Positions 7,146 to 36,850 of a stretch of 64,000 bases of DNA are shown piece after piece. Source of the stretch: an uncultured Spirochaetota bacterium (GTDB taxonomy: Bacteria > Spirochaetota > Spirochaetia > SZUA-6 > Fen-1364). The notes below the pieces were generated by a model. It was not told where the DNA came from and did no database searches. It saw nothing but the letters and a program-made list of their open reading frames with translations. Position 1 is the stretch's first letter; the number at the start of each line of letters is the position of its first letter. Location: contig CAWGAA010000001.1 in NCBI GenBank assembly GCA_963820525.1, positions 2,368,001 to 2,432,000 of the forward strand, written 5' to 3'. Position numbers and translations under genes: made by a program.

Positions 7146-8117
7146 CTATCGCTTCGGTGCTGGCCTCTTCGACTTGCCGCCTGCGGCCGGCTTTTTTCCG
7201 GAACCCGACTTCACGGGTTTTGATGCCTTCTTCGCGGGCTTTGCCTTCAAAGTCTTTTTTCCGGCGCTTTTCGACTTCGGCTTGGACTTGGATGCCGGGG
7301 CGGCCTTCGGCTTTGCCGGAGCCTTCGCTTTCGGCTTTGCGACCGCCTTTGGCTTTGGCTTTGCGACTGCTTTGGGCTTCGGCCTGGCGGCCGGAGACGG
7401 CTTTGGCTGGGCCTTAGCCGCGGGCCGGGCTTGAACGACGGGAGCCGGCTTGGGTGCGGTGAATGCCGCCGGTTTGGGCGCTGCGGCGGCGGGCGACGGC
7501 TTCGTTTCGGTTGTGGGCCTGGGCGGCACCGTGGGGGCCGGCTCCGGTTTGGAGACGACGGGAGCCGGCTTGGGGGCGGTGAATGCCGCCGGTTTGGGCG
7601 CTGCGGCGGCGGGCGACGGCTTCGTTTCGGTTGTGGGCCTGGGCGGCACCGTGGGGGTCGGCTCCGGTTTGGAAACGAAGGGAGCCGGTTTGGGGGCGGT
7701 GAATGCCGCCGGTTTGGGCGCCGCAGCTGCCGGAGTCTCCACTTTGGGAGCAGCGGCCGCCGGCTTTATCTCCCCTGCCGGCCTCGGCGGGCCTGCGGGC
7801 GGCATCGGGGCGGCCGCAGGAATGGAGACGACCGAGTTGTCGCTTCCGAAGGCGTTCAGGACGTGCGAATCAGCGGCCGGATCGTTGTGCCAGCGGCTGG
7901 ACTGGTCGCGGAAACGATACTGGTACTGGCGCCCGGCCGGAAGCTCGAGGGAAACGCTCCACGAGCCGTCGGCGCGGCGGCCGAGCGGGGTCGCCGTATC
8001 ACTCCAGCCGTTGAAGTCCCCGACAAGATAGAGCGCCTCGATTCCCGATGAGCCGGGAAAGGAGAAAGTGACGAGGAACTTACCTCCCTGGGATGGCCTT
8101 TTCTCGATCATGATCAT
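7146..8117 (-). CDS. Glycogen-binding CBM48/early-set domain fused to a Pro/Ala linker and a histone-H1-like Lys/Ala/Pro tail
   Basis: N-terminal VTF...LVGDFNGW......L....DGSW..L.LP.G..YQYRF.....W.NDP......N.FG..NSV; C-terminal KPKAVAKPK/KPAKKASK repeats. Confidence 0.8.
   Translation of the reverse strand: MIMIEKRPSQGGKFLVTFSFPGSSGIEALYLVGDFNGWSDTATPLGRRADGSWSVSLELPAGRQYQYRFRDQSSRWHNDPAADSHVLNAFGSDNSVVSIPAAAPMPPAGPPRPAGEIKPAAAAPKVETPAAAAPKPAAFTAPKPAPFVSKPEPTPTVPPRPTTETKPSPAAAAPKPAAFTAPKPAPVVSKPEPAPTVPPRPTTETKPSPAAAAPKPAAFTAPKPAPVVQARPAAKAQPKPSPAARPKPKAVAKPKPKAVAKPKAKAPAKPKAAPASKSKPKSKSAGKKTLKAKPAKKASKPVKSGSGKKPAAGGKSKRPAPKR
7435..7726. repeat. Intragenic 120-bp tandem repeat, about 2.4 copies (40-aa unit)
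   Basis: 7441-7560 and 7561-7680 differ at only a few positions; a third partial copy starts at 7681. Confidence 0.95.
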
Positions 8118-17641: not shown

Positions 17642-19042
17642 ATGGATGCAACGACAAAGCTGTCGACCCACGTCAAAAGGAACCCCGCCATCGTGAAGAT
17701 CGTGATCATCGCCGCCCTTGTTCTGCTCCTCCTCATCCCGCTGGCCATGATCCGTTCTCTTGTGGACGAGAGGCAGGGCGTGCACAGGGAAGCGGAAGCG
17801 GAAATACTCAAGAGCTGGGGAGGGGGCGAGACCATCGGGGGCCCGGTCCTCACGGTCCCGTACCTGGAATACTCCCTGGACGCCAAGGGCAAGCGCCTGG
17901 AGACCGTGAGGTACGCCCGCTTCCTGCCCGACAGGCTGTCATTCGACGGTGAGGCTCTGCCGGAGGTCCGCTCGCGCGGGATCTACGACGTCGCGGTCTA
18001 CACGGCGCGGATTCACGCAAGCGGGACCTTCCGCCGTCCGTCCTTCGGGGGATGGCGGATTGCACAGGAGGCGATTCTCTGGAACGCCGCGTTTCTCTCG
18101 GTTGAGCTTCCTGACATGCGAGCAGTGCAGGAGCGAGTCACCCTGACGTGGGGCGCCCGGAAGAACCCCTTCGAGACATCGACGGCGAGCCTGGGGCTGT
18201 TCGTCGGTGAGCTTCGCGCGGCCGCGACCGATCTCGCCCTCACCCAGCCGGGGGAGCGCATCACGTTCTCCTTCGATCTCGTTCTCAGGGGCGGCGATAC
18301 CCTGGAGTTCCTGCCGCTGGGAGAGGAAACCACTGTGAGCTTGCGGTCCTCCTGGAAGAGCCCCAGCTTCAACGGCGCGTTCCTCCCCGTAAGCCGCTCG
18401 CTCTCGGACTCCGGCTTCGAGGCGACGTGGAAGGTCCTCTCCATGGCGCGGATCTATCCCCAGCGATGGCTCCCCGAACAGATCGAGCCCCAGAGCATCC
18501 ACTCCTCGGCTTTCGGGGTAAGCCTCATGACGCCCGTCGACTCTTATATGAAGGTGACCCGGGCGACGAAATACGGCATACTTTTTCTGCTCCTCCCGTT
18601 TCTTACCCTCTTCTTTTTCGAGATTTTCGCCGTCCGGAGAATCCACCCCCTGCAGTACCTGTTCGTGGGGTTCGCAGAATGCATCTTCTACCTCCTGCTC
18701 CTGTCCCTCTGCGAGCACATCCCCTTCCTGGCCGCCTACATCGCCGCCGCCGCGGCCTCCATCGGCCTCATTGCCTCCTACACCTTCGCCATTTCATCGC
18801 GGTGGAAGGGGAGCTTCCTGATCCTTCCCGTTCTTATCACCGCGTACGCATTCCTCTATCTGGTTCTCCGCTCCGAGGACTACGCTCTCCTCGTCGGATC
18901 TCTGGGGCTGTTCATCATCCTTTCGGCCGTCATGGCGCTGACCCGCAAGATCGACTGGTATTCGATCGGGCTTCCCAGAACCGCGCCGGAAGCGAAGGGG
19001 CGGGGTGATGGGGTGGAGGGAGGCGGAGGTGAAAAAAGTTGA
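17642..19042 (+). CDS. creD: Cell-envelope integrity inner-membrane protein CreD
   Basis: LLLIPL.MI..LV.ER, GPVL.VPY, RGIY.V.VY, SPSF.G.FLP, R..KYG.LF, IHP.QY..VG, LLLSL.EH and EDYALL.GS motifs. Confidence 0.92.
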   Translation: MDATTKLSTHVKRNPAIVKIVIIAALVLLLLIPLAMIRSLVDERQGVHREAEAEILKSWGGGETIGGPVLTVPYLEYSLDAKGKRLETVRYARFLPDRLSFDGEALPEVRSRGIYDVAVYTARIHASGTFRRPSFGGWRIAQEAILWNAAFLSVELPDMRAVQERVTLTWGARKNPFETSTASLGLFVGELRAAATDLALTQPGERITFSFDLVLRGGDTLEFLPLGEETTVSLRSSWKSPSFNGAFLPVSRSLSDSGFEATWKVLSMARIYPQRWLPEQIEPQSIHSSAFGVSLMTPVDSYMKVTRATKYGILFLLLPFLTLFFFEIFAVRRIHPLQYLFVGFAECIFYLLLLSLCEHIPFLAAYIAAAAASIGLIASYTFAISSRWKGSFLILPVLITAYAFLYLVLRSEDYALLVGSLGLFIILSAVMALTRKIDWYSIGLPRTAPEAKGRGDGVEGGGGEKS

Positions 19043-19084: not shown

Positions 19085-19717
19085 ATGCCAGTCAAGCACC
19101 CGTTTCTTCTGTATCTCCGCTCCCGGCTGAACCTCTGGGTCTCTGCGGCCGCCGCGGGCCTCATCATCGCCGCGGCGGTCTTCCTGGGCTCCTGGCTCCT
19201 TGCGGCGGCCATCCTCGTCCTTTTCGCGTACCTCGTCGCCACCTTCCTCCTGTTCTTCTCGCACAGGGGCGCCCGGGAAGTCGTCGAGGAAAGCGAGCAG
19301 GACAGAATGAAGAAGGTTCGGGAGAAAATCGACTATTACGCTCGAATGCGGGAACAAATCGCAGTTCTGCGCGTTGGAGACGAGGCCATGAGAAAGAGCC
19401 TGGAGTACTTTCTCCTCGAATCCGGCGCGTACATAGAGAAATGCCGCCAGGCCGGACTCTATTCCCCCCGGGCGAACAAGAGGATCGAGGACGCGCTGGA
19501 GATCTGCCAGGCTTTTCTCGGGGAGCTGGACGAGAGCTCCACGGAAAAACGCTACGGCGTGCGGGATGGGGAGAGCTTCGAGGAGTTCGCAAAGAGGTCA
19601 GTGGATGCGGTGATGGCGGCCGGCTCGGACATCAAGGAGTGGACCACCGAGGACCTCATCGGCCTGAGCGCCCAGGACAGGCTGTCCATCATCGAGGAGC
19701 TGGAAGGGAAAAAATGA
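19085..19717 (+). CDS. Hypothetical membrane protein (two N-terminal TM helices and a charged helical domain)
   Basis: Hydrophobic residues about 16-60 followed by an E/K/R-rich helical region; stop overlaps the next start (ATGA). Confidence 0.75.
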   Translation: MPVKHPFLLYLRSRLNLWVSAAAAGLIIAAAVFLGSWLLAAAILVLFAYLVATFLLFFSHRGAREVVEESEQDRMKKVREKIDYYARMREQIAVLRVGDEAMRKSLEYFLLESGAYIEKCRQAGLYSPRANKRIEDALEICQAFLGELDESSTEKRYGVRDGESFEEFAKRSVDAVMAAGSDIKEWTTEDLIGLSAQDRLSIIEELEGKK

Positions 19718-21339
19718 GCAGAAGGTTTGCCCCGGTTGTTCTCGCGTTCTGTCTGGCGGCGAGCGCCGCATTCGGCCTGGACGTCCGGCTCAACTCCGCG
19801 GAGATGGACGTCGTGGTGCGTCCGGACGGCAAAGCCGCCGTATTCGAGAGCCTCGACTGGATGGCTTCCGGCGGTCAGATGCACGGGTTCTACTTCCAGG
19901 GGGCGGCCGCCCCGCCCGTCTTCAACCTGGACCAGTGCCACGCCGACCTGGCGGGGGGGACGCGCGTCGGCCTCCAGATCTCGGACCTGGGCTCCGGCAA
20001 ATACGACGTCGTGCTGGCGGGCGGCCGCGGATTCAGCGGCTCCGCCATGTACTTCCTCAACTACGGCCAGGACCTGGCGAGGACAAAGCTCATCGGCACC
20101 ACCGAGTCGAGCCAGCTGGGAAAGCTCTTCTACTTCGACTGGGCGCCGGAGGAGTGGGAGTATCCAATGGACCACAGGACGGTCCGGGTTGTCCTCCCCA
20201 TCAAGACGGGAAGCGATGTCGGCCAGGCTCTCATCGACAAGATCGACCTTCGCACCGAGCCGTACGTCAACCAGGAGAACAAGATCGACTACTTCGGCAG
20301 CAAGGGAAGCGACGGCTCGTACTATCTCACCATCCGATTCCACCAGCAGAGCGTCGCCCCGAGGCAGAGCCAGCGGATCCAGTTCTACATCAAGGCGGAT
20401 CAGGTGCCCATGACGGTCTCCCTGACGGAGAGCACGCAGGTCCCGCAGGCGGGTGCTCCTTCCGGAAGCCAGGGCGAGACACAGCCGTCAGAGATGTACC
20501 CCGAGCGGACGCGGCTCCTCCCGAACCCCCTCATCTCCGCCCCCTTCCTGGGAGCCCTCATTGTCCTCGAGATCGTTCTCTACCTCCTGAAGGTGAGAGG
20601 ATTCGCAAAGACCGTGGAAAAGGTGGAGAGCATCCGCTGGGCGGGCGACAACTGGATTCCGCCCAAGCTCTACGTCGGCACGTATCAAGTGAAGGGCAAG
20701 ATCGTCAAGGACCTCCACCCCATCGAGGCCGCGCTGCTGTTGGAGCTGCCCCTCGCCCGGGTGGTGGCGATTATGCTTGAAGGCCTCAAGCGTCAGGGCA
20801 TCATCGAGGTGGTCACGGAGGACCCCCTCCAGATCAGGATCCTCACGGCCCGCAAGGCCGAGCACGAGTACGAGGAGCTTTTCCTCCAGGCCTTCGACAC
20901 CAAGGGCAATGTTCTCTCGGGGCTCCTCTCCGACTTCTTCGAGAAGGTGCTGGCCAGGCTCCAGGAAAAGATCTGGGACTGCGACATCGAGGCGACGAAG
21001 GACTTCTATAGAAAGAAGCTCGAGCAGAGGGAGGAAACTGAAGCGGACCGCCTGGAGCCGCACTACTGGTACTGGACCTCCTACCGCTACATCTACTGGA
21101 ACGCGGCCGTCTACCCCCACATCCACCTGCCGGCCGAGTTCTCCTCCGGCTACCAGCAGTTCATGGCATCGGCCTCCTGCTTCAAGGGATGCTTCGCTCC
21201 GGCGCAGGCAATGACGGGCGGAGTCGGCGCCTGCTATTCAGCGTGCCATAACGCCTGCCACTCCGCCTGCCATTCAGCCTGCCATTCGGCCTGCCACTCC
21301 GCCTGTCATTCAGCCTGCGTCTCCGGGGGGGCGCACTGA
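19714..21339 (+). CDS. DUF2207-like single-pass membrane protein with a C-terminal (A-C-H-S)n Cys/His repeat; putative radical SAM target
   Basis: Signal peptide MSRRFAPVVLAFCLAASAAFG, extracytoplasmic domain (V.V.PDG.A.V.E; W..P.....V.V.LP), one TM, DL.P.EAALLL/G.IEV/YE..FL..F region, tail ACYSACHNACHSACHSACHSACHSACHSACVSGGAH. Confidence 0.8.
   Translation: MSRRFAPVVLAFCLAASAAFGLDVRLNSAEMDVVVRPDGKAAVFESLDWMASGGQMHGFYFQGAAAPPVFNLDQCHADLAGGTRVGLQISDLGSGKYDVVLAGGRGFSGSAMYFLNYGQDLARTKLIGTTESSQLGKLFYFDWAPEEWEYPMDHRTVRVVLPIKTGSDVGQALIDKIDLRTEPYVNQENKIDYFGSKGSDGSYYLTIRFHQQSVAPRQSQRIQFYIKADQVPMTVSLTESTQVPQAGAPSGSQGETQPSEMYPERTRLLPNPLISAPFLGALIVLEIVLYLLKVRGFAKTVEKVESIRWAGDNWIPPKLYVGTYQVKGKIVKDLHPIEAALLLELPLARVVAIMLEGLKRQGIIEVVTEDPLQIRILTARKAEHEYEELFLQAFDTKGNVLSGLLSDFFEKVLARLQEKIWDCDIEATKDFYRKKLEQREETEADRLEPHYWYWTSYRYIYWNAAVYPHIHLPAEFSSGYQQFMASASCFKGCFAPAQAMTGGVGACYSACHNACHSACHSACHSACHSACHSACVSGGAH
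21229..21324 (+). repeat. Eight 12-bp coding units encoding A-C-x-x
   Basis: GCCTGCTATTCA GCGTGCCATAAC GCCTGCCACTCC GCCTGCCATTCA GCCTGCCATTCG GCCTGCCACTCC GCCTGTCATTCA GCCTGCGTCTCC. Confidence 0.97.
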
Positions 21340-21341
21340 GA

Positions 21342-22721
21342 ATGACAACGAAGAAAGGCGCCTCCGCGCCGGTAACCGTGGCGGACCTGGCCTGGATAGA
21401 CGAGTTCTACCGTGAAATGCGGCCCTACCTCTTTGTGCGTGAAGAAGACGAAGTGGTGATCCTTCCGCCCAATCAGGTCTACAAGGCCAATTCTTCGGGG
21501 ATAGCCCTGCTCAAGCACCTGGAGCGCGGCCGGAGGATCTCCCGGTTTGCCGGGCTCCAGGATGGAGAGCGGGCGCACCAGGTGAACGACTTCTTCGCCG
21601 ACCTGCGCGACTTCTGCGCCGGCGACACGAGGGGCATGGACTCACGGCCTTCGGTGGAAAGGATCCCCTACACCTTTCACTACACGGCCCTTCCCATTCT
21701 CGGCGAGATCGCCGTCACCTACCGCTGCAACAACTCATGCCTGTTCTGCTACGCCTCGTGCGGCAGCGGCGCTCGCGGCTGCGGCGGCGGCCCCCAGGCG
21801 CTCGGCGGCGCAGGCGGAGAACGCAGCGAGATGACCCTGGCCGAGATCAAGCGGATAATCGACATCTTCAAGACCGAAGCCCATATCCCCTTCTTCTCTT
21901 TTACGGGAGGCGAGCCGCTCCTGAGGAGGGATCTGGAGGAGATGATCCGCTATGCCCGCGCAATAGGATTGCGGGTCAACCTCATCACCAATGCGACGAT
22001 GGCGGATCCCTCACGGTCGCGCCGGCTCCGCAAGAGCGGCCTCACCACTGCCCAGGTAAGCGTTGAAAGCCCCGACGAAGAGATCCACGACCGTCTCACG
22101 GCCAGTCCCGGCTCCTTCCGCCGGACCCTCCAGGGAATCAGAAGCCTTCAGGAGGCGGGTATCGCGGTGCAGACCAACACCACCATCACGGCGGCAAACG
22201 CCGGTTCGGCGCCGCAGATGCCCGCGTTCCTCGCCGGCCGGGGAGTGAGCCGCTTCGCAATGAACCTCTACATCCCCGTCTCCGCCGGCGGGGCGCACAA
22301 CGGCTTGTTCTTTCCCTACTCTTCAATCGGCCCCGTGATCGAGTCGGTGCGGGCGGCCGCGCTTGGCCGGGGCCTCACCTTCTATTGGTATTCACCCGTT
22401 CCGCACTGCATCTACAATCCGATCGCAAAGGGGCTGGGAAACAAGTCGTGCGCAGCGATGGACGGGCTTCTGTCGGTATCGCCTTCGGGGGAGGTCCTTC
22501 CCTGCTCTTCCTACCCCCGGTCGATGGGCAGCCTTCTGACGAAGAGCTTCCGCGATGTGTGGTTCTCCGCGGAGGCGGCCCATTTCAAGAACAAGGAATA
22601 CGCTCCCGCCTGCTGCGCGGGCTGCGAGAGCTTTCGCGCCTGCCAGGCCGCCTGCCCCCTGTACTGGGAGCAGGCGGGAACGGCGGAGATCGCGGGCGCG
22701 CGTTCGCTGAAGGAGGCATGA
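21342..22721 (+). CDS. Radical SAM/SPASM-domain protein with a PqqD/RRE-like N-terminal extension
   Basis: CNNSCLFC (CX3CX2C), FTGGEPLLR, SPASM C...SPSGEVLPC...MG.L...W...CAGCESFRACQAAC (CX2CX5CX3C); about 110 extra N-terminal residues. Confidence 0.93.
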   Translation: MTTKKGASAPVTVADLAWIDEFYREMRPYLFVREEDEVVILPPNQVYKANSSGIALLKHLERGRRISRFAGLQDGERAHQVNDFFADLRDFCAGDTRGMDSRPSVERIPYTFHYTALPILGEIAVTYRCNNSCLFCYASCGSGARGCGGGPQALGGAGGERSEMTLAEIKRIIDIFKTEAHIPFFSFTGGEPLLRRDLEEMIRYARAIGLRVNLITNATMADPSRSRRLRKSGLTTAQVSVESPDEEIHDRLTASPGSFRRTLQGIRSLQEAGIAVQTNTTITAANAGSAPQMPAFLAGRGVSRFAMNLYIPVSAGGAHNGLFFPYSSIGPVIESVRAAALGRGLTFYWYSPVPHCIYNPIAKGLGNKSCAAMDGLLSVSPSGEVLPCSSYPRSMGSLLTKSFRDVWFSAEAAHFKNKEYAPACCAGCESFRACQAACPLYWEQAGTAEIAGARSLKEA

Positions 22722-23638
22722 AGAAAATGCTGCTCGCCTACACGATCCCCAAGGTCCCGCTTACCGTCCGCCTCCTTCTCTTCGCCGCATTCGCGGCGGC
22801 GGGAGCAGCGGTCCAGCTCCTCCTGGGCGACTTCGGCGTCTTTCTGGGCGCCATCCTGATGGTACCGGGGCTCATCTTCGTCTGGGCAAAGGGCTATCGG
22901 AACAAGCCGGTTGACCTCGGCTTCCAGGACTGGCAGCCCGTTTCAGCCGCCGAGTTCGGAAGGATCAAGAGCAATCTTGCATTCACGCGAAAGGGGCGCT
23001 ACTCAGTGATCTACAAGCCGGGATTCGGGGTCTTCATCATCATCGCCCTGGGAATCCTCGCGCTCGTGTTCCTCTTTTCGGAGGCCGCCCTGGCCGCCCT
23101 GTTCTCCTTCGACGCGGCCGTGCTCCTCCTCCCCTTCCTCTTCTCCGGCAACGTGAGGCTGTGGACGCCGCAGGAGCTCGCCTTCAAGATGCACGGCTTC
23201 GATACAATCGTCGGATCCGAGCCGACTGAAGGCGGCGACATCATCATCACCCCGTACCTCCGCCTGGACAAGGACAAGGAGGGGAGGAGGATACCTGAGG
23301 ACATCCGCCTCATGGTGGAGCCGCGCAGGAAGCCCGCAGACTTCCTGGGAGTGCAGTTCCAGGTTGCCATCAACAAGGGCCCCAACGGGCCAGTGCCGTA
23401 CATGTACGCCGTATTCCTCTGCAAGGGTAAGGGAGAATCATTCAGTTGGGTCGATTCCCAGCGCTTCTCCGGCATGGAGCAGGAGCCGGGAGGGGACAAG
23501 GAGTACGGCTATGTCGTGGTCCGCCAGAAAACCTCGGGAACGGGCTATCACACGACCGACTCCGACATCAAGAGGCTCTACGGCATCGTCAAGGAAAAGC
23601 TCCTCGCGATGAAAGGCGGCGACAAGGCGGCCAATTAG
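22718..23638 (+). CDS. Hypothetical polytopic membrane protein (about 4 TM plus soluble C-terminal domain)
   Basis: AGGAGG RBS, ATGA overlap with the radical SAM stop, two hydrophobic hairpins. Confidence 0.78.
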   Translation: MKKMLLAYTIPKVPLTVRLLLFAAFAAAGAAVQLLLGDFGVFLGAILMVPGLIFVWAKGYRNKPVDLGFQDWQPVSAAEFGRIKSNLAFTRKGRYSVIYKPGFGVFIIIALGILALVFLFSEAALAALFSFDAAVLLLPFLFSGNVRLWTPQELAFKMHGFDTIVGSEPTEGGDIIITPYLRLDKDKEGRRIPEDIRLMVEPRRKPADFLGVQFQVAINKGPNGPVPYMYAVFLCKGKGESFSWVDSQRFSGMEQEPGGDKEYGYVVVRQKTSGTGYHTTDSDIKRLYGIVKEKLLAMKGGDKAAN

Positions 23639-31671: not shown

Positions 31672-32694
31672 TCAGACGACGGGGTCCTCCTTGATGAAAT
31701 CGAGGATCTCCCCGATGTACCCGAAGGCGAGGTTCACGCAGGTATCTGCCCCGCCGTAGTAGATCGCGATCCTGCCCGAGGCCGGATCCTGCACGCTGGA
31801 GCAGGGGAAAACGACATTGGGAACGTCTCCCACGCATTCGTAGGAAGCCTGCGGCGAGAGAAGGTAGCGCCTGCCGCGGGCGCGGACCTTCCAGGGTTTC
31901 TCCAGGTCCAGGAGGGCGGCGCCCATGCTGTAGACGAAACCGTTGCAGCTGGTGAGCACGCCGTGATAGATGAGAAGCCATCCTTCGGGGGTCTCGATGG
32001 GAGCAGCCCCGGCGCCCACCTTGGTGCTCTGCCAGGGGCTCTCGCCGCCCAGGGTGCCCATAACCCAGCGATGCCTGCCCCAATAGGTGAGGTCGGGGCT
32101 CTCGCTGTAAAAGATGTCGCCGAAGGGGGTATGGCCCGAATCGCTGGGGCGGTGCAGGACGGCGAACCTGCCGTCGATCTTTCGGGGAAAGAGAACGCCG
32201 TTTCTATTGTAGGGAGGGAGGATGTTCTCGGTTCTGAAGAAAGTCTCGAAGTCGAAGGTGTATCCCGCCCCGATGCTTGCGCCGTGATTGCCATCGCACC
32301 AGAGAAGGTGGTAGCGGCCCTCGACGCGCACCACGCGCGGATCATACTTGTACTGGGAATCGGGCAGATCGGGATCCGCGGGAGCGAACCTGATGGGCTC
32401 GGGGTCGATTCGCCATCTGACGCCGTCCTCGCTGAATCCCCTGTGTATGTTCATTCGGCGGGCGTCATCGTCGACGCGAAAAACTCCGGCAAAGCCCTGC
32501 CCGAAGGGCACGACGGCGCTGTTGAACACGCTGTTCGACCTCGTTGTGGCATGACGGTCGATTATGGGATTGCCGGAGCACCGCCAGAGAGGCGAGACGC
32601 ACTCCCTGGGACGATCCTCCCAGGGAATCCTCCGCATTGCATTTTCGGCCGGCTCGGCGCGCTCAGCTGCGGCTTTCCTTTTCACTTCAGGCAT
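31672..32694 (-). CDS. GH130 beta-1,4-mannooligosaccharide phosphorylase
   Basis: NSVFNSAVV, YDPRV, PYNRNGVLFPRKI, RPSD.GHTPFGDIF, GDVPNVVFP and YYGGADT motifs. Confidence 0.9.
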   Translation of the reverse strand: MPEVKRKAAAERAEPAENAMRRIPWEDRPRECVSPLWRCSGNPIIDRHATTRSNSVFNSAVVPFGQGFAGVFRVDDDARRMNIHRGFSEDGVRWRIDPEPIRFAPADPDLPDSQYKYDPRVVRVEGRYHLLWCDGNHGASIGAGYTFDFETFFRTENILPPYNRNGVLFPRKIDGRFAVLHRPSDSGHTPFGDIFYSESPDLTYWGRHRWVMGTLGGESPWQSTKVGAGAAPIETPEGWLLIYHGVLTSCNGFVYSMGAALLDLEKPWKVRARGRRYLLSPQASYECVGDVPNVVFPCSSVQDPASGRIAIYYGGADTCVNLAFGYIGEILDFIKEDPVV

Positions 32695-32813: not shown

Positions 32814-33031
32814 GAGTTTTTTTGCCGCCACCGAGTCTCTCCTTTCGCACCTGGGCCTTTCCGGGGGTCACTGGCATGAAATAATAATGTAAATAATTAT
32901 ATGTAAAATAATTATATTGCAGCCATATCAATAAGAAGCAAATGTAAAAAGCGACCTGAGGCTCGCCTCGCGCCGAATATGGGGCCGATGAGGCTCATCC
33001 TTTCCAGATAGAGAAGCCCCGGAAACGACCC

Positions 33032-35520: not shown

Positions 35521-36636
35521 ATGCAGCGTACCATAACTTCGATCACGATCAACGAAATAGCGCGGATCGCCGGTGTGGCCAAGGGGACCGTGTCCAAGGT
35601 CCTCAACAACTACCATGGGATCAACGAGCGCACGCGCCAGCGGGTCCTGAAAATCGTCAAGGACCTGAACTACGAGCCCAACTCGGCTGCCCAGACCCTC
35701 GCGCTTCGAAGAACCGGCAACATCGGCCTGATCATCCCCCACTCCCCCGAGCATTCCCTCACCGGCGCCTACTGGTCTTCCCTGGTGAGCGCGATCACCC
35801 GCGAGGCGACGCGACTCGGCTACAGCCTTGCCCTCCTCCTCCCCCAGGCTGAGGGACTGCTCCCGGACCTGTTCCGCTCCATCGTGCGCAAGAAAAGGGT
35901 CGACGGCCTGATCGTCGGCGCCGAGCTCATGGACAAGGGGTACTTTGCCACCCTCCTGTCGACGGAGGCCCACTTCGTGATGCTGGGCAGAAACCCCGCT
36001 TTCATCCACCACTGCGTCGACATCGACAACCGCGCGGCCGGCGCCTCCATCGCCTCCTACCTCATCGGCCGCGGCTATCGAAGGCCGCTGTTTATCGGGG
36101 GGCCTTCCGAGTACTACTACATGGCGGATCGTGCCGCGGGCTTCGCCGAAAGCGTGCGCGCCGCCGGTCTGGAGCCTCTCCAGGCGTTGTTCCTCCCCTA
36201 CGAGGACCGCGAAACGATGAAGAGCGTCCTCACCGGAGTCGTCGAGTCGGGCGGGCCTGATTCGGCCGTCGTGGGGGCGGGCGGCGACTTCATGTTCGAC
36301 GCGCTGGCCGCCTTCGAGGCATTGGGCCTCCGCCCGCCCGAGTTCGGCTTCGCCACCTTCGACGATTACCGATTCCTCGACTTCCTCAAGCCGCCCATCA
36401 CGGCCGTGGCCCAGCCCGTGAGCCGCATGGGCAAGGAGGCGGTCAGGATACTGGTGGAGCTTCTCAAGTCGCCCCGGGAGCCGGCAGGCCGGGATCGGTG
36501 CGTGATCCTGGACACGTCCATCATCGGCCGCGCGAGCTGCGGCGAGACGTACCCGGTTTCGGCCGCTCAGAAGGACTGCGATTTCTTCGCTTTCCAGCGC
36601 GATCAGAAGACAACCAGGCGCCGCGGCCAGACCTAG
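35521..36636 (+). CDS. LacI-family transcriptional regulator of the mannan locus
   Basis: TINEIARIAGVAKGTVSKVLN HTH, Y.PN..A..L hinge, and sugar-binding domain. Confidence 0.92.
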   Translation: MQRTITSITINEIARIAGVAKGTVSKVLNNYHGINERTRQRVLKIVKDLNYEPNSAAQTLALRRTGNIGLIIPHSPEHSLTGAYWSSLVSAITREATRLGYSLALLLPQAEGLLPDLFRSIVRKKRVDGLIVGAELMDKGYFATLLSTEAHFVMLGRNPAFIHHCVDIDNRAAGASIASYLIGRGYRRPLFIGGPSEYYYMADRAAGFAESVRAAGLEPLQALFLPYEDRETMKSVLTGVVESGGPDSAVVGAGGDFMFDALAAFEALGLRPPEFGFATFDDYRFLDFLKPPITAVAQPVSRMGKEAVRILVELLKSPREPAGRDRCVILDTSIIGRASCGETYPVSAAQKDCDFFAFQRDQKTTRRRGQT

Positions 36637-36850
36637 ACCTGCGGCGGCTTTTCGAGCGAAGTGAGAAAAACGCCGCTGGGAGGGCGGAGGCGCGCGGAGC
36701 CCTGTGGCGATAGTCCGCCGCATAAGGCGGCAGCGCGCCCATAGACCTGCGGCGGCTTTTCGAGCGGAGCGAGAAAACGCCGCTGGGAGGTCGGAGGCGC
36801 GCGGAGCCCTGTGGCGGTAATCCGCCGCATAAGGCGGCAGCGCGCCCTAG
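36633..36850. repeat. Two tandem ~107-bp GC-rich hairpin-forming repeats (REP/MITE-like), bounded by CTAG
   Basis: 36634-36740 and 36742-36847 are near-identical; internal inverted repeats; CTAG at 36633 and 36847. Confidence 0.85.

Follow-up and report, generated by a model that had tools for sequence, protein, structure and literature searches.

The window analysed here, a stretch of 64,000 nucleotides from the genome of an uncultured Spirochaetota bacterium (contig CAWGAA010000001.1 of assembly GCA_963820525.1, positions 2,368,001 to 2,432,000), encodes a predicted type I membrane protein of 541 amino acids (aa), here called the host (19714..21339; this and all other features of the locus lie on the + strand), whose C-terminus carries a ladder of eight Cys-containing units of the A-C-H-S type (21229..21324; nine units in close relatives). 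Next to it stands the gene of a 459-aa radical S-adenosylmethionine (SAM) enzyme with an N-terminal recognition element (RRE) of the kind known from peptides that are synthesized ribosomally and modified post-translationally (RiPPs) and with a SPASM region (21342..22721). Judging from the sequences, the tail of the host is very probably the substrate of this adjoining RRE-radical SAM-SPASM enzyme, a predicted maturase, and the ladder is the predicted modification core, as outlined by repeat and tail alignment. The product that we favour on the residue pattern, tandem thioether rings from Cys(i) to the residue at i+3, stands just short of an even chance, and, given modification, about half of the likelihood would fall, by analogy with streptosactin, on a bond from the sulfur to the alpha-carbon at i+3. 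The stretch ahead of the ladder, with its F-x2-Y-x2-FM pattern, would serve as an internal leader to which the RRE binds, each Cys sulfur would be joined to the small residue three positions on, and eight to ten thioether rings would lie back to back in a row at the predicted cytoplasmic end of the host.

The open reading frame (ORF) of the host ends in CFKGCFAPAQAMTGGVG-ACYS-ACHN-(ACHS)5-ACVS-GGAH, with the stop codon at 21339. Upstream of the ladder, the tail alignment shows a C-aromatic-x-G/A-C motif, here CFKGC (21178..21192); 10 Cys and 7 His fall within the final 54 residues, and the remainder of the protein has 3 Cys. Tandem Repeats Finder describes the ladder as a repeat of period 12 with 7.6 copies, 75% matches, no indels and a score of 105, and a ladder of this kind is far beyond chance. 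Ala-Cys is invariant in it, Ala being encoded seven times by GCC and once by GCG and Cys seven times by TGC and once by TGT; the His codons are CAT (four) and CAC (two), and the Ser codons TCA (three), TCC (three) and TCG (one). Counts and codons thus reproduce a preliminary description of this tail, which had reported eight 12-bp units with invariant Ala-Cys, the upstream CFKGC and the Cys and His totals and had stated that the units vary mainly at synonymous sites: only the units with Y, N and V depart non-synonymously, and each departure is kept by position in relatives. Both other + frames across the ladder are closed by stops, and this is the only His/Ala-patterned ladder at an ORF end in the 5.0-Mb genome, the other seven of its eight C-x3 runs being without the pattern.

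Relatives were collected in a genome scan with one genome per species, the tail not being among the search words; 107 stretches gave 89 relatives, from which 80 loci were kept, nearly all titled as Spirochaetota metagenome-assembled genomes, together with two unclassified records and one from the Myxococcales; identity over the best segment was 42-77%. Four loci without a complete tail were dropped for tail comparisons (L053, L072 and L079, at a contig end, and L021, with a deletion), and in the few long-read loci with frameshifts upstream of the tail it was read in the frame that ends at the stop. The ladder is in frame in 76 of the 80 loci, and in all 76 the last eight units keep their Ala and Cys without exception. 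Between the last five units of the window and those of the 76 relatives, 1520 codon comparisons gave 754 synonymous differences and 1 non-synonymous difference. Mean identity over the 57 close rows of alignment A2 is 97.5% for the ladder, 66% for the cytoplasmic domain (residues 300-440), 53% for the ectodomain and 31% for the membrane helix. The preliminary description had called the motif old, selected and conserved at the protein level and had named the alignment of homologous tails as a test; the claim comes out of this test strongly supported, because the Ala and Cys of the ladder are invariant and the synonymous excess is 754:1.

The number of units is nine in 75 of the 76 genome relatives, ten in one and eight in the window. 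Nine units were also counted in all 28 complete ladders shown from further genomes in this family or order, loci that overlap the first set and in part come from the same genomes, the L021 remnant excepted. A second set consisted of metagenome loci, the best 80 of at least 516 stretches found in 30 of the 64 parts scanned, with the ladder itself as one of the two search patterns; eight units were counted in 37 of them, nine in 35, ten in 3, eleven in 3, twelve in 1 and none in 1, so all 79 ladders have 8-12 units and eight is a normal length outside the close family. The window allele differs from that of a near-identical strain by a slippage-type indel, since the strain has one extra exact 12-nt tandem copy: a 6.5-kb contig from run X1 (depth 13) covers the whole of a 1201-nt test stretch and departs from it by two substitutions and by one insertion of 12 nt behind 21261, and the insertion is an exact tandem copy of the following 12 bases (21262..21273; run X1 record 1 compared with run X4 record 25) and makes nine units. 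A 669-nt contig from run X4 is identical to the window and one from X6 agrees with it as far as 21287; these two do not count as independent support, because they belong to one study and the holders may include the source of the window. Runs X2, X3, X5, X7 and X8 do not cleanly bridge the ladder and are uninformative on unit number. Collapse in assembly seems unlikely, because the perfect repeat of about 26 nt is shorter than the 31-letter word, and loss of a unit in the window is likelier than gain, because nine is the family norm.

Over the long term, neighbouring units are less alike in their DNA than shuffled ones. The longest run of identity at lag 12 has a mean of 10.6 nt in a set of 74 distinct nine-unit ladders, compared with 12.6 ± 0.5 in within-ladder codon shuffles (lower than all of them, 0 of 500 being as low) and, for 73 ladders, with 11.7 ± 0.5 expected from the codon usage of the gene (0 of 300 as low); at lag 24 the identical run exceeds all shuffles. 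Codon alternation that acts against slippage would give neighbours of this kind, the ladders being those of kin and thus not independent. The statement of the preliminary description that the tail is not made by slippage accordingly stands for the long-term pattern and fails for the window allele. It is highly improbable that the tail is a slippage-made, length-variable low-complexity tract without specific function: the 8/9-unit indel between near-identical strains is what such a tract would produce, as are the proteins with three to seven units (P0003, P0006, P0012, P0019, P0039, P0053 and P0056), which are database forms only, but the codon counts with their synonymous excess already contradict it, and the unit numbers in both sets of loci and the avoidance of DNA identity between adjacent units speak against it. 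Moreover, L208 has the same flanks as the seven-unit P0012 and yet nine units, and some of the short forms may therefore reflect assembly collapse or strain-level loss.

The ladder and the enzyme are closely linked. The enzyme gene starts 2 nt past the host stop. Of the genome loci, 67 leave 1.5 kb of room, and in 65 of these an intact enzyme ORF comes next after the host, as it does in 65 of 65 metagenome loci; the two genome loci without an intact ORF give tblastn matches. In the 65 genome loci, the gap between the genes is -4 in 52, -1 in 6, +2 in 5 and another value in 2, and stop and start thus overlap in 58. Among 301 genomes drawn evenly from the phylum, the host profile matches 20 and the enzyme profile 22 (E <1e-60), which include all 20; of the two enzyme-only genomes, G274 has a ladder directly upstream and G307 has none. 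The host and enzyme matches of G087 are split between contigs, that of the enzyme lying at the end of one. For the phylum to which the Myxococcales record belongs, matches were found in 10 of 251 genomes, and of nine matches above 380 bits in this second phylum (centre genome included), eight have the ladder within 1.5 kb and one has it on another contig. With these two phyla and the metagenome stretches, the system is patchy but widespread; in a count of 41 relatives, the host is present in 26. In host and enzyme trees of 111 pairs, 50 of 69 supported host splits recur and 13 conflict, with a distance correlation of 0.89; the agreement was not counted as co-evolution, because kin share their history.

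This distribution bears on the alternative that the tail is left unmodified and serves as a metal- or Fe-S-binding or redox-sensing ladder, the enzyme acting on the product of the third gene, a cofactor or a lipid or only loading clusters. Such a role would suit the Cys/His-rich composition, the 9-12 Cys held within the final 70 residues of the 146 distinct tails on which all residue-pattern statistics here are based, and the best NCBIfam matches of the enzyme, which are to haem-pathway families and all far below cut-off, as well as the genome G307, which keeps the enzyme without a ladder. We consider it improbable nonetheless, since a fused RRE marks peptide-modifying enzymes, the enzyme stays with the ladder even where the third gene of the unit is replaced (family f47, see below), and the invariant Ala at +3 would go beyond the usual need of a metal site. 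That the tail does no more than bind metal is made less likely in particular by its almost obligate association with a maturase that has an RRE.

The assignment of this predicted maturase combines sequence and model, in which the radical SAM core, the SPASM region and the N-terminal RRE were all found. The enzyme scores 98.3 bits with PF04055 and 35.6 bits with PF13186 (cut-off 21.5), both above cut-off. The CX3CX2C motif of the SAM cluster (C129, C133 and C136; 21726..21749) is present in 121 of 121 aligned enzymes, and C140 is kept in 106 of the 121. The SPASM region (22407..22655) has Cys 356, 370, 388, 425, 428, 434 and 438, each conserved in 119-121 of the 121 sequences, in the arrangement CX12GX4C...CX2CX5CX3C; the canonical final Cys is absent, no Cys following C438, and Cys356 is an extra one upstream. 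The PqqD-like RRE (residues 28-92; 21423..21617) is seen as three strands followed by helices in the model of the whole enzyme (pLDDT, the predicted local distance difference test, 86; pTM, the predicted template modelling score, 0.88) and in the N-terminal alignment with SkfB and SuiB, which spans the RRE of both; PF05402 gave no hmmscan match, and PqqD clusters of the ESM Atlas (0.88) are a lead only. Structural alignment ranks SkfB first (Z 26.2, root-mean-square deviation 3.5, 333 aligned, model residues 28-440 to chain residues 12-387), followed by anSME (Z 25.1) and SuiB (Z 24.8, model 22-452 to 2-439); viperin has 24.2, and ChlB, with 23.5, lies within the pack. SkfB is also top in the profile search, and SuiB heads the Foldseek list. 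PADLOC returned only generic viperin matches. The score with the HxsC4 model is 70.5 bits (cut-off 500). A predicted complex of the enzyme with host residues 440-541 scored 0.00 with an uncertain partner fold and was used neither for nor against the pairing. The genome has another radical SAM/SPASM gene (G000:C2:545789-546796), with 123 bits for TIGR04269 (cut-off 370).

The host model (mean pLDDT 83) shows a beta-sandwich, a disordered linker, a membrane helix, an alpha/beta domain and a low-confidence tail. A predicted signal peptide (residues 1-21; 19714..19776), hydrophobic over 6-24 after two Arg, helical over 2-19 and with a putative cleavage site, is followed by the predicted extracytoplasmic beta-sandwich (residues 22-235; 19777..20418; pLDDT 95-98 over 21-230). 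Foldseek matches this sandwich to the N-terminal domains of M1 aminopeptidases and to an oligosaccharyltransferase subunit, which we take to be ribophorin I, with E 3e-7 to 1e-5 over about 230 aligned columns. Hydropathy and model predict a single transmembrane helix (residues 273-291; 20530..20586), with four Lys/Arg after and two before it, and then a cytoplasmic alpha/beta domain (residues 336-437; 20719..21024; pLDDT >90), into which a third hydrophobic stretch (337-355) is folded as part of a soluble domain. The tail is thus predicted to be cytoplasmic and therefore within reach of an Fe-S enzyme. The preliminary description had pictured Cys and His along roughly one face of a helix; the helix that AlphaFold places there has a pLDDT <50 and was not taken as evidence. 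The host also resembles the DUF2207 membrane proteins in its single-pass architecture and in a weak N-terminal match (PF09972, 21.1 bits), which lies below the cut-off of 24.4; one of nine full-length homologues exceeds this value (P0009, 24.8 bits). PF20990 (DUF2207_C) gave no hmmscan match with the host and is a lead from the Atlas only (0.83).

The likely chemistry was judged from the residues around each Cys. In the 146 tails, Ala occupies Cys+3 for 1142 of the 1143 ladder Cys that are not final, and Gly or Ser does so for all 146 final ones, so that each ladder Cys is followed at +3 by Ala, Gly, Ser or, once, Thr, and the first upstream Cys has Gly or Ala there in 113 of 113. Cys+2 is free to vary, Gly included. 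At Cys+1 there is His throughout the inner units (997 of 997); the first units have His or Tyr (141 of 146), the final units Val (145 of 146) and the upstream motif Phe, Tyr or His. Because a small residue, Gly included, stands three positions after every ladder Cys, the pattern would fit S-to-C-alpha rings as in streptosactin, where unnested sactionines are described between Cys25 and Ser28 and between Cys31 and Gly34 (PMC8172795). The alternation of Cys donor and small acceptor that is typical of type 2 sactipeptides is found here as a sequence pattern only, and the host is not a short protease-released precursor but a 541-aa membrane protein. Thioethers on a protein of 29 kDa are reported for CrpC (PMC13692751), and for AlbA seven SPASM Cys were taken to suggest an open site (PMC6231123). 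Of the three possibilities raised in the preliminary description, namely a thioether ladder, His cyclophanes and a metal or Fe-S binding tail, the first fits best and the second is its main rival.

Several points weigh against the thioether rings or against the pairing that underlies them. The second of the upstream Cys is followed at +3 by Pro or His, and the His at +1, which is as invariant as Cys, would not be needed by thioether formation. The lead of SkfB over anSME and viperin is small, and by our own mapping PqqE shares as many active-site positions with the enzyme as SkfB does. In CteB and PapB, three ligands are described on cluster 1 and four on cluster 2 (PMC10177961); the Cys pattern seen here differs from theirs, as Cys356 could fill cluster 1 in the manner of SuiB, which forms C-C bonds, and cluster 2 lacks its last Cys. 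The corresponding linker Cys of SkfB is given as about 12 Å away from the cluster (PMC6231123), and the cluster ligation of the enzyme is ambiguous. For GggB and QmpB, the known sactisynthases of the unnested type, a likeness to ranthisynthases is described (PMC10288494), whereas the enzyme has no match to TIGR03974. As to the pairing, G307, which has the enzyme and no ladder, is 94% complete, and in G557 the ladder sits on another contig than the enzyme.

The first alternative chemistry would use the His rather than the Cys: three-residue cyclophanes could join the aromatic residue to the beta-carbon of the Ala two positions on, leaving the thiols free for metal or Fe-S. An aromatic residue at Cys+1 nearly everywhere would be accounted for, as would the final unit, which loses His and Ala together (Val at +1; Gly or Ser at +3), and for the inner units the fit is equal; Cys356 could fully ligate cluster 1 as in SuiB. 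His/Tyr-x-Ala, an aromatic-X-X motif of the triceptide type, occurs in all units but the last, as a pattern only, and His-Ala-Ala cyclophanes are described for HaaB (PMC11499958). The upstream aromatic-x-Gly motif, however, offers no beta-carbon, the invariance of Cys is left to a second function, and neither TIGR04269 of the FxsB type, presumably a triceptide-type family, nor, among the best 25 of 68 NCBIfam matches, any recognised triceptide synthase was found for the locus. On balance we consider such cyclophanes unlikely.

It is also possible, if rather unlikely, that the tail is the substrate of other chemistry, such as S-C-beta bonds (lanthionine-like with Ala, ranthionine with Ser or Asp), a Cys-His thioether, C-alpha epimerisation or thiol oxidation. 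The residues near the active site, Y137, T188, S240, S389 and S390, are invariant or nearly so, and the catalytic-site profile, by our own mapping Y/T/(I or T)/S/S/S, is neither the F/F/T/S/H/Q reported for CteB (PMC10288494) nor fully that of SkfB or PqqE. None of the best 25 of 68 NCBIfam matches is above cut-off (best 122.7 bits, with 500 required), and CrpC is described as forming ranthionines at C-A-x-x motifs (PMC13692751). On the other side, TIGR03974 (ranthipeptides, SCIFF) has no match at the locus and TIGR04463 a poor one (27.9 bits, cut-off 525), and a uniform beta link is ruled out at Cys+2 and at the final Cys+3, because Gly occurs there. TIGR04115 likewise has no match at the locus.

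The proposed tail stapling can be set beside several known systems. Among them are CrpA/CrpC of Methanococcus voltae (TIGR04463; PMC13692751) and QhpC/QhpD, in which an RRE-radical SAM-SPASM enzyme with seven SPASM Cys is encoded beside a large protein whose C-terminal region is a Cys repeat and RiPP-like modification of a protein takes place; CrpA, as described there, is a 29-kDa protein with a 17-residue repeat and ranthionines, whereas the substrate proposed here is a 541-aa membrane protein with a four-residue Cys-His repeat, and the enzyme is far below the cut-off of the Crp family. Type 2 sactipeptides (streptosactin/GggB, QmpA/QmpB) share the small residue at Cys+3, and the sactisynthase SkfB is the nearest solved enzyme by profile and fold, but these sactipeptides are described as short, two-ring peptides that are released. 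Triceptide His cyclophanes (HaaB, HtkB; PMC11499958) have repeated His-x-Ala triads beside a SPASM enzyme; here, in contrast, there is a Cys in every unit and the substrate is a large membrane protein. The CXXX-repeat system (target TIGR04117, maturase TIGR04115) likewise has Cys at every fourth residue beside a radical SAM gene; the tail reaches 12.9 bits with the target model (cut-off 50), which has 98 positions and is far shorter than the host. The HXS antiphage system (HxsA-D; PMC13128918) has a protein effector with His/Ser repeats matured by radical SAM enzymes; in its description, HxsA carries His-x-Ser repeats without Cys, two radical SAM enzymes and HxsD take part and the effector is exported to the periplasm, whereas this locus has a His-Ser-Ala-Cys repeat, one enzyme and a tail predicted to be cytoplasmic, and was not classed as HXS. 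The system would work like RiPP-type protein modification (QhpC/D, CrpA/C, HxsA), yet falls below every family cut-off tested. Our literature searches, whose coverage left out most subscription journals, found no published description of a ladder-enzyme system, and the ladder motifs, "Spirochaet" and "DUF2207" are absent from three supplements of PMC13692751.

If the tail is modified as proposed, radical SAM cross-linking would come to include an integral membrane protein whose core is strictly periodic, and the system might provide a processive multi-stapling enzyme. To our knowledge, ring modification of the predicted kind is known mostly from small peptide antibiotics. Validated radical SAM cross-linking of large proteins is limited, with QhpC and CrpA as named examples (PMC13692751). 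A fuller picture, which we regard as tentative and on the whole doubtful, is that the three-gene module makes a membrane-tethered, never-released poly-macrocycle in which one enzyme processively closes 8-10 rings, that ladder length is guarded by codon alternation and that the tail becomes a rigid, metal- or ligand-binding His-comb signalling rod on the cytoplasmic side of a receptor-like protein. New Cys-His-Ala chemistry may be part of this picture, because the set of active-site residues matches no compared profile. Speculatively, the rod would present its comb of His to a metal or other ligand at the inner face of the membrane, and the modified tail, still attached to the host, would work with the four-helix membrane partner encoded by the third gene.

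The product of this third core gene (22718..23638) has 306 aa, with a conserved soluble domain and, by prediction, four membrane helices; the gene is next after the enzyme in 64 of 64 genome and 45 of 45 metagenome loci with room; it has 377 homologues, and among the 120 listed none is named or has a Pfam domain. Upstream of the host, a 210-aa membrane protein whose stop overlaps the host start (19085..19717) and which reaches no family cut-off among NCBIfam and Pfam models is, by its locus counts, a spirochaete-specific accessory: of the genome loci with room, 58 of 65 have it, as against only 3 of 80 metagenome loci. The creD gene (17642-19042; NF008712, 471.7 bits), which encodes a cell envelope integrity protein, on the same strand directly upstream, was considered as a member of the unit and rejected, since it occurs in only 3 of 80 related loci. 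Beyond the core and upstream genes, no same-strand family of at least 120 aa recurs in more than 15 of 160 loci. A promoter and terminator scan found nothing notable at the boundaries of the three-gene unit, and no RNA holder of the locus was listed. An apparent host-enzyme fusion (P0010, L021:613-3357, annotated as radical SAM) proved to be a deletion into the ladder that leaves three units out of frame.

Variants of the unit occur among the relatives. In family f47 (L204:8388-5620 of G295, L205:8473-5222 of G283, and L198-L200), the host is longer (about 920-1080 aa) and the ladder is interrupted, three or four units being followed by VH, repeatedly, up to the end CVSSF; the enzyme comes after the host, and the place of the 306-aa gene is taken by genes for a protein of 428-480 aa and a membrane protein of 186-190 aa with CxxC...CxxC. 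At L201 (G307:C23:1-7000), the host is missing in place and the upstream genes match host-flanking genes of G295, of the same genus, which reflects either a real loss or a misassembly. In the second phylum, the ladders of L210-L213, from four genomes, end about 1 kb before the enzyme, with room for an intervening gene, and those of L210, L211 and L213 have 11 units. Elsewhere in the window there are a two-copy 107-nt tandem repeat (36634-36847; 94%), a 2.4-copy 120-nt repeat (7434-7721; 96%) and, in this 60% GC genome, an AT-rich 15-nt repeat of 2.9 copies (32879-32917) near the start of a glycoside-phosphorylase-like gene (31672-32694), where it may be an operator.

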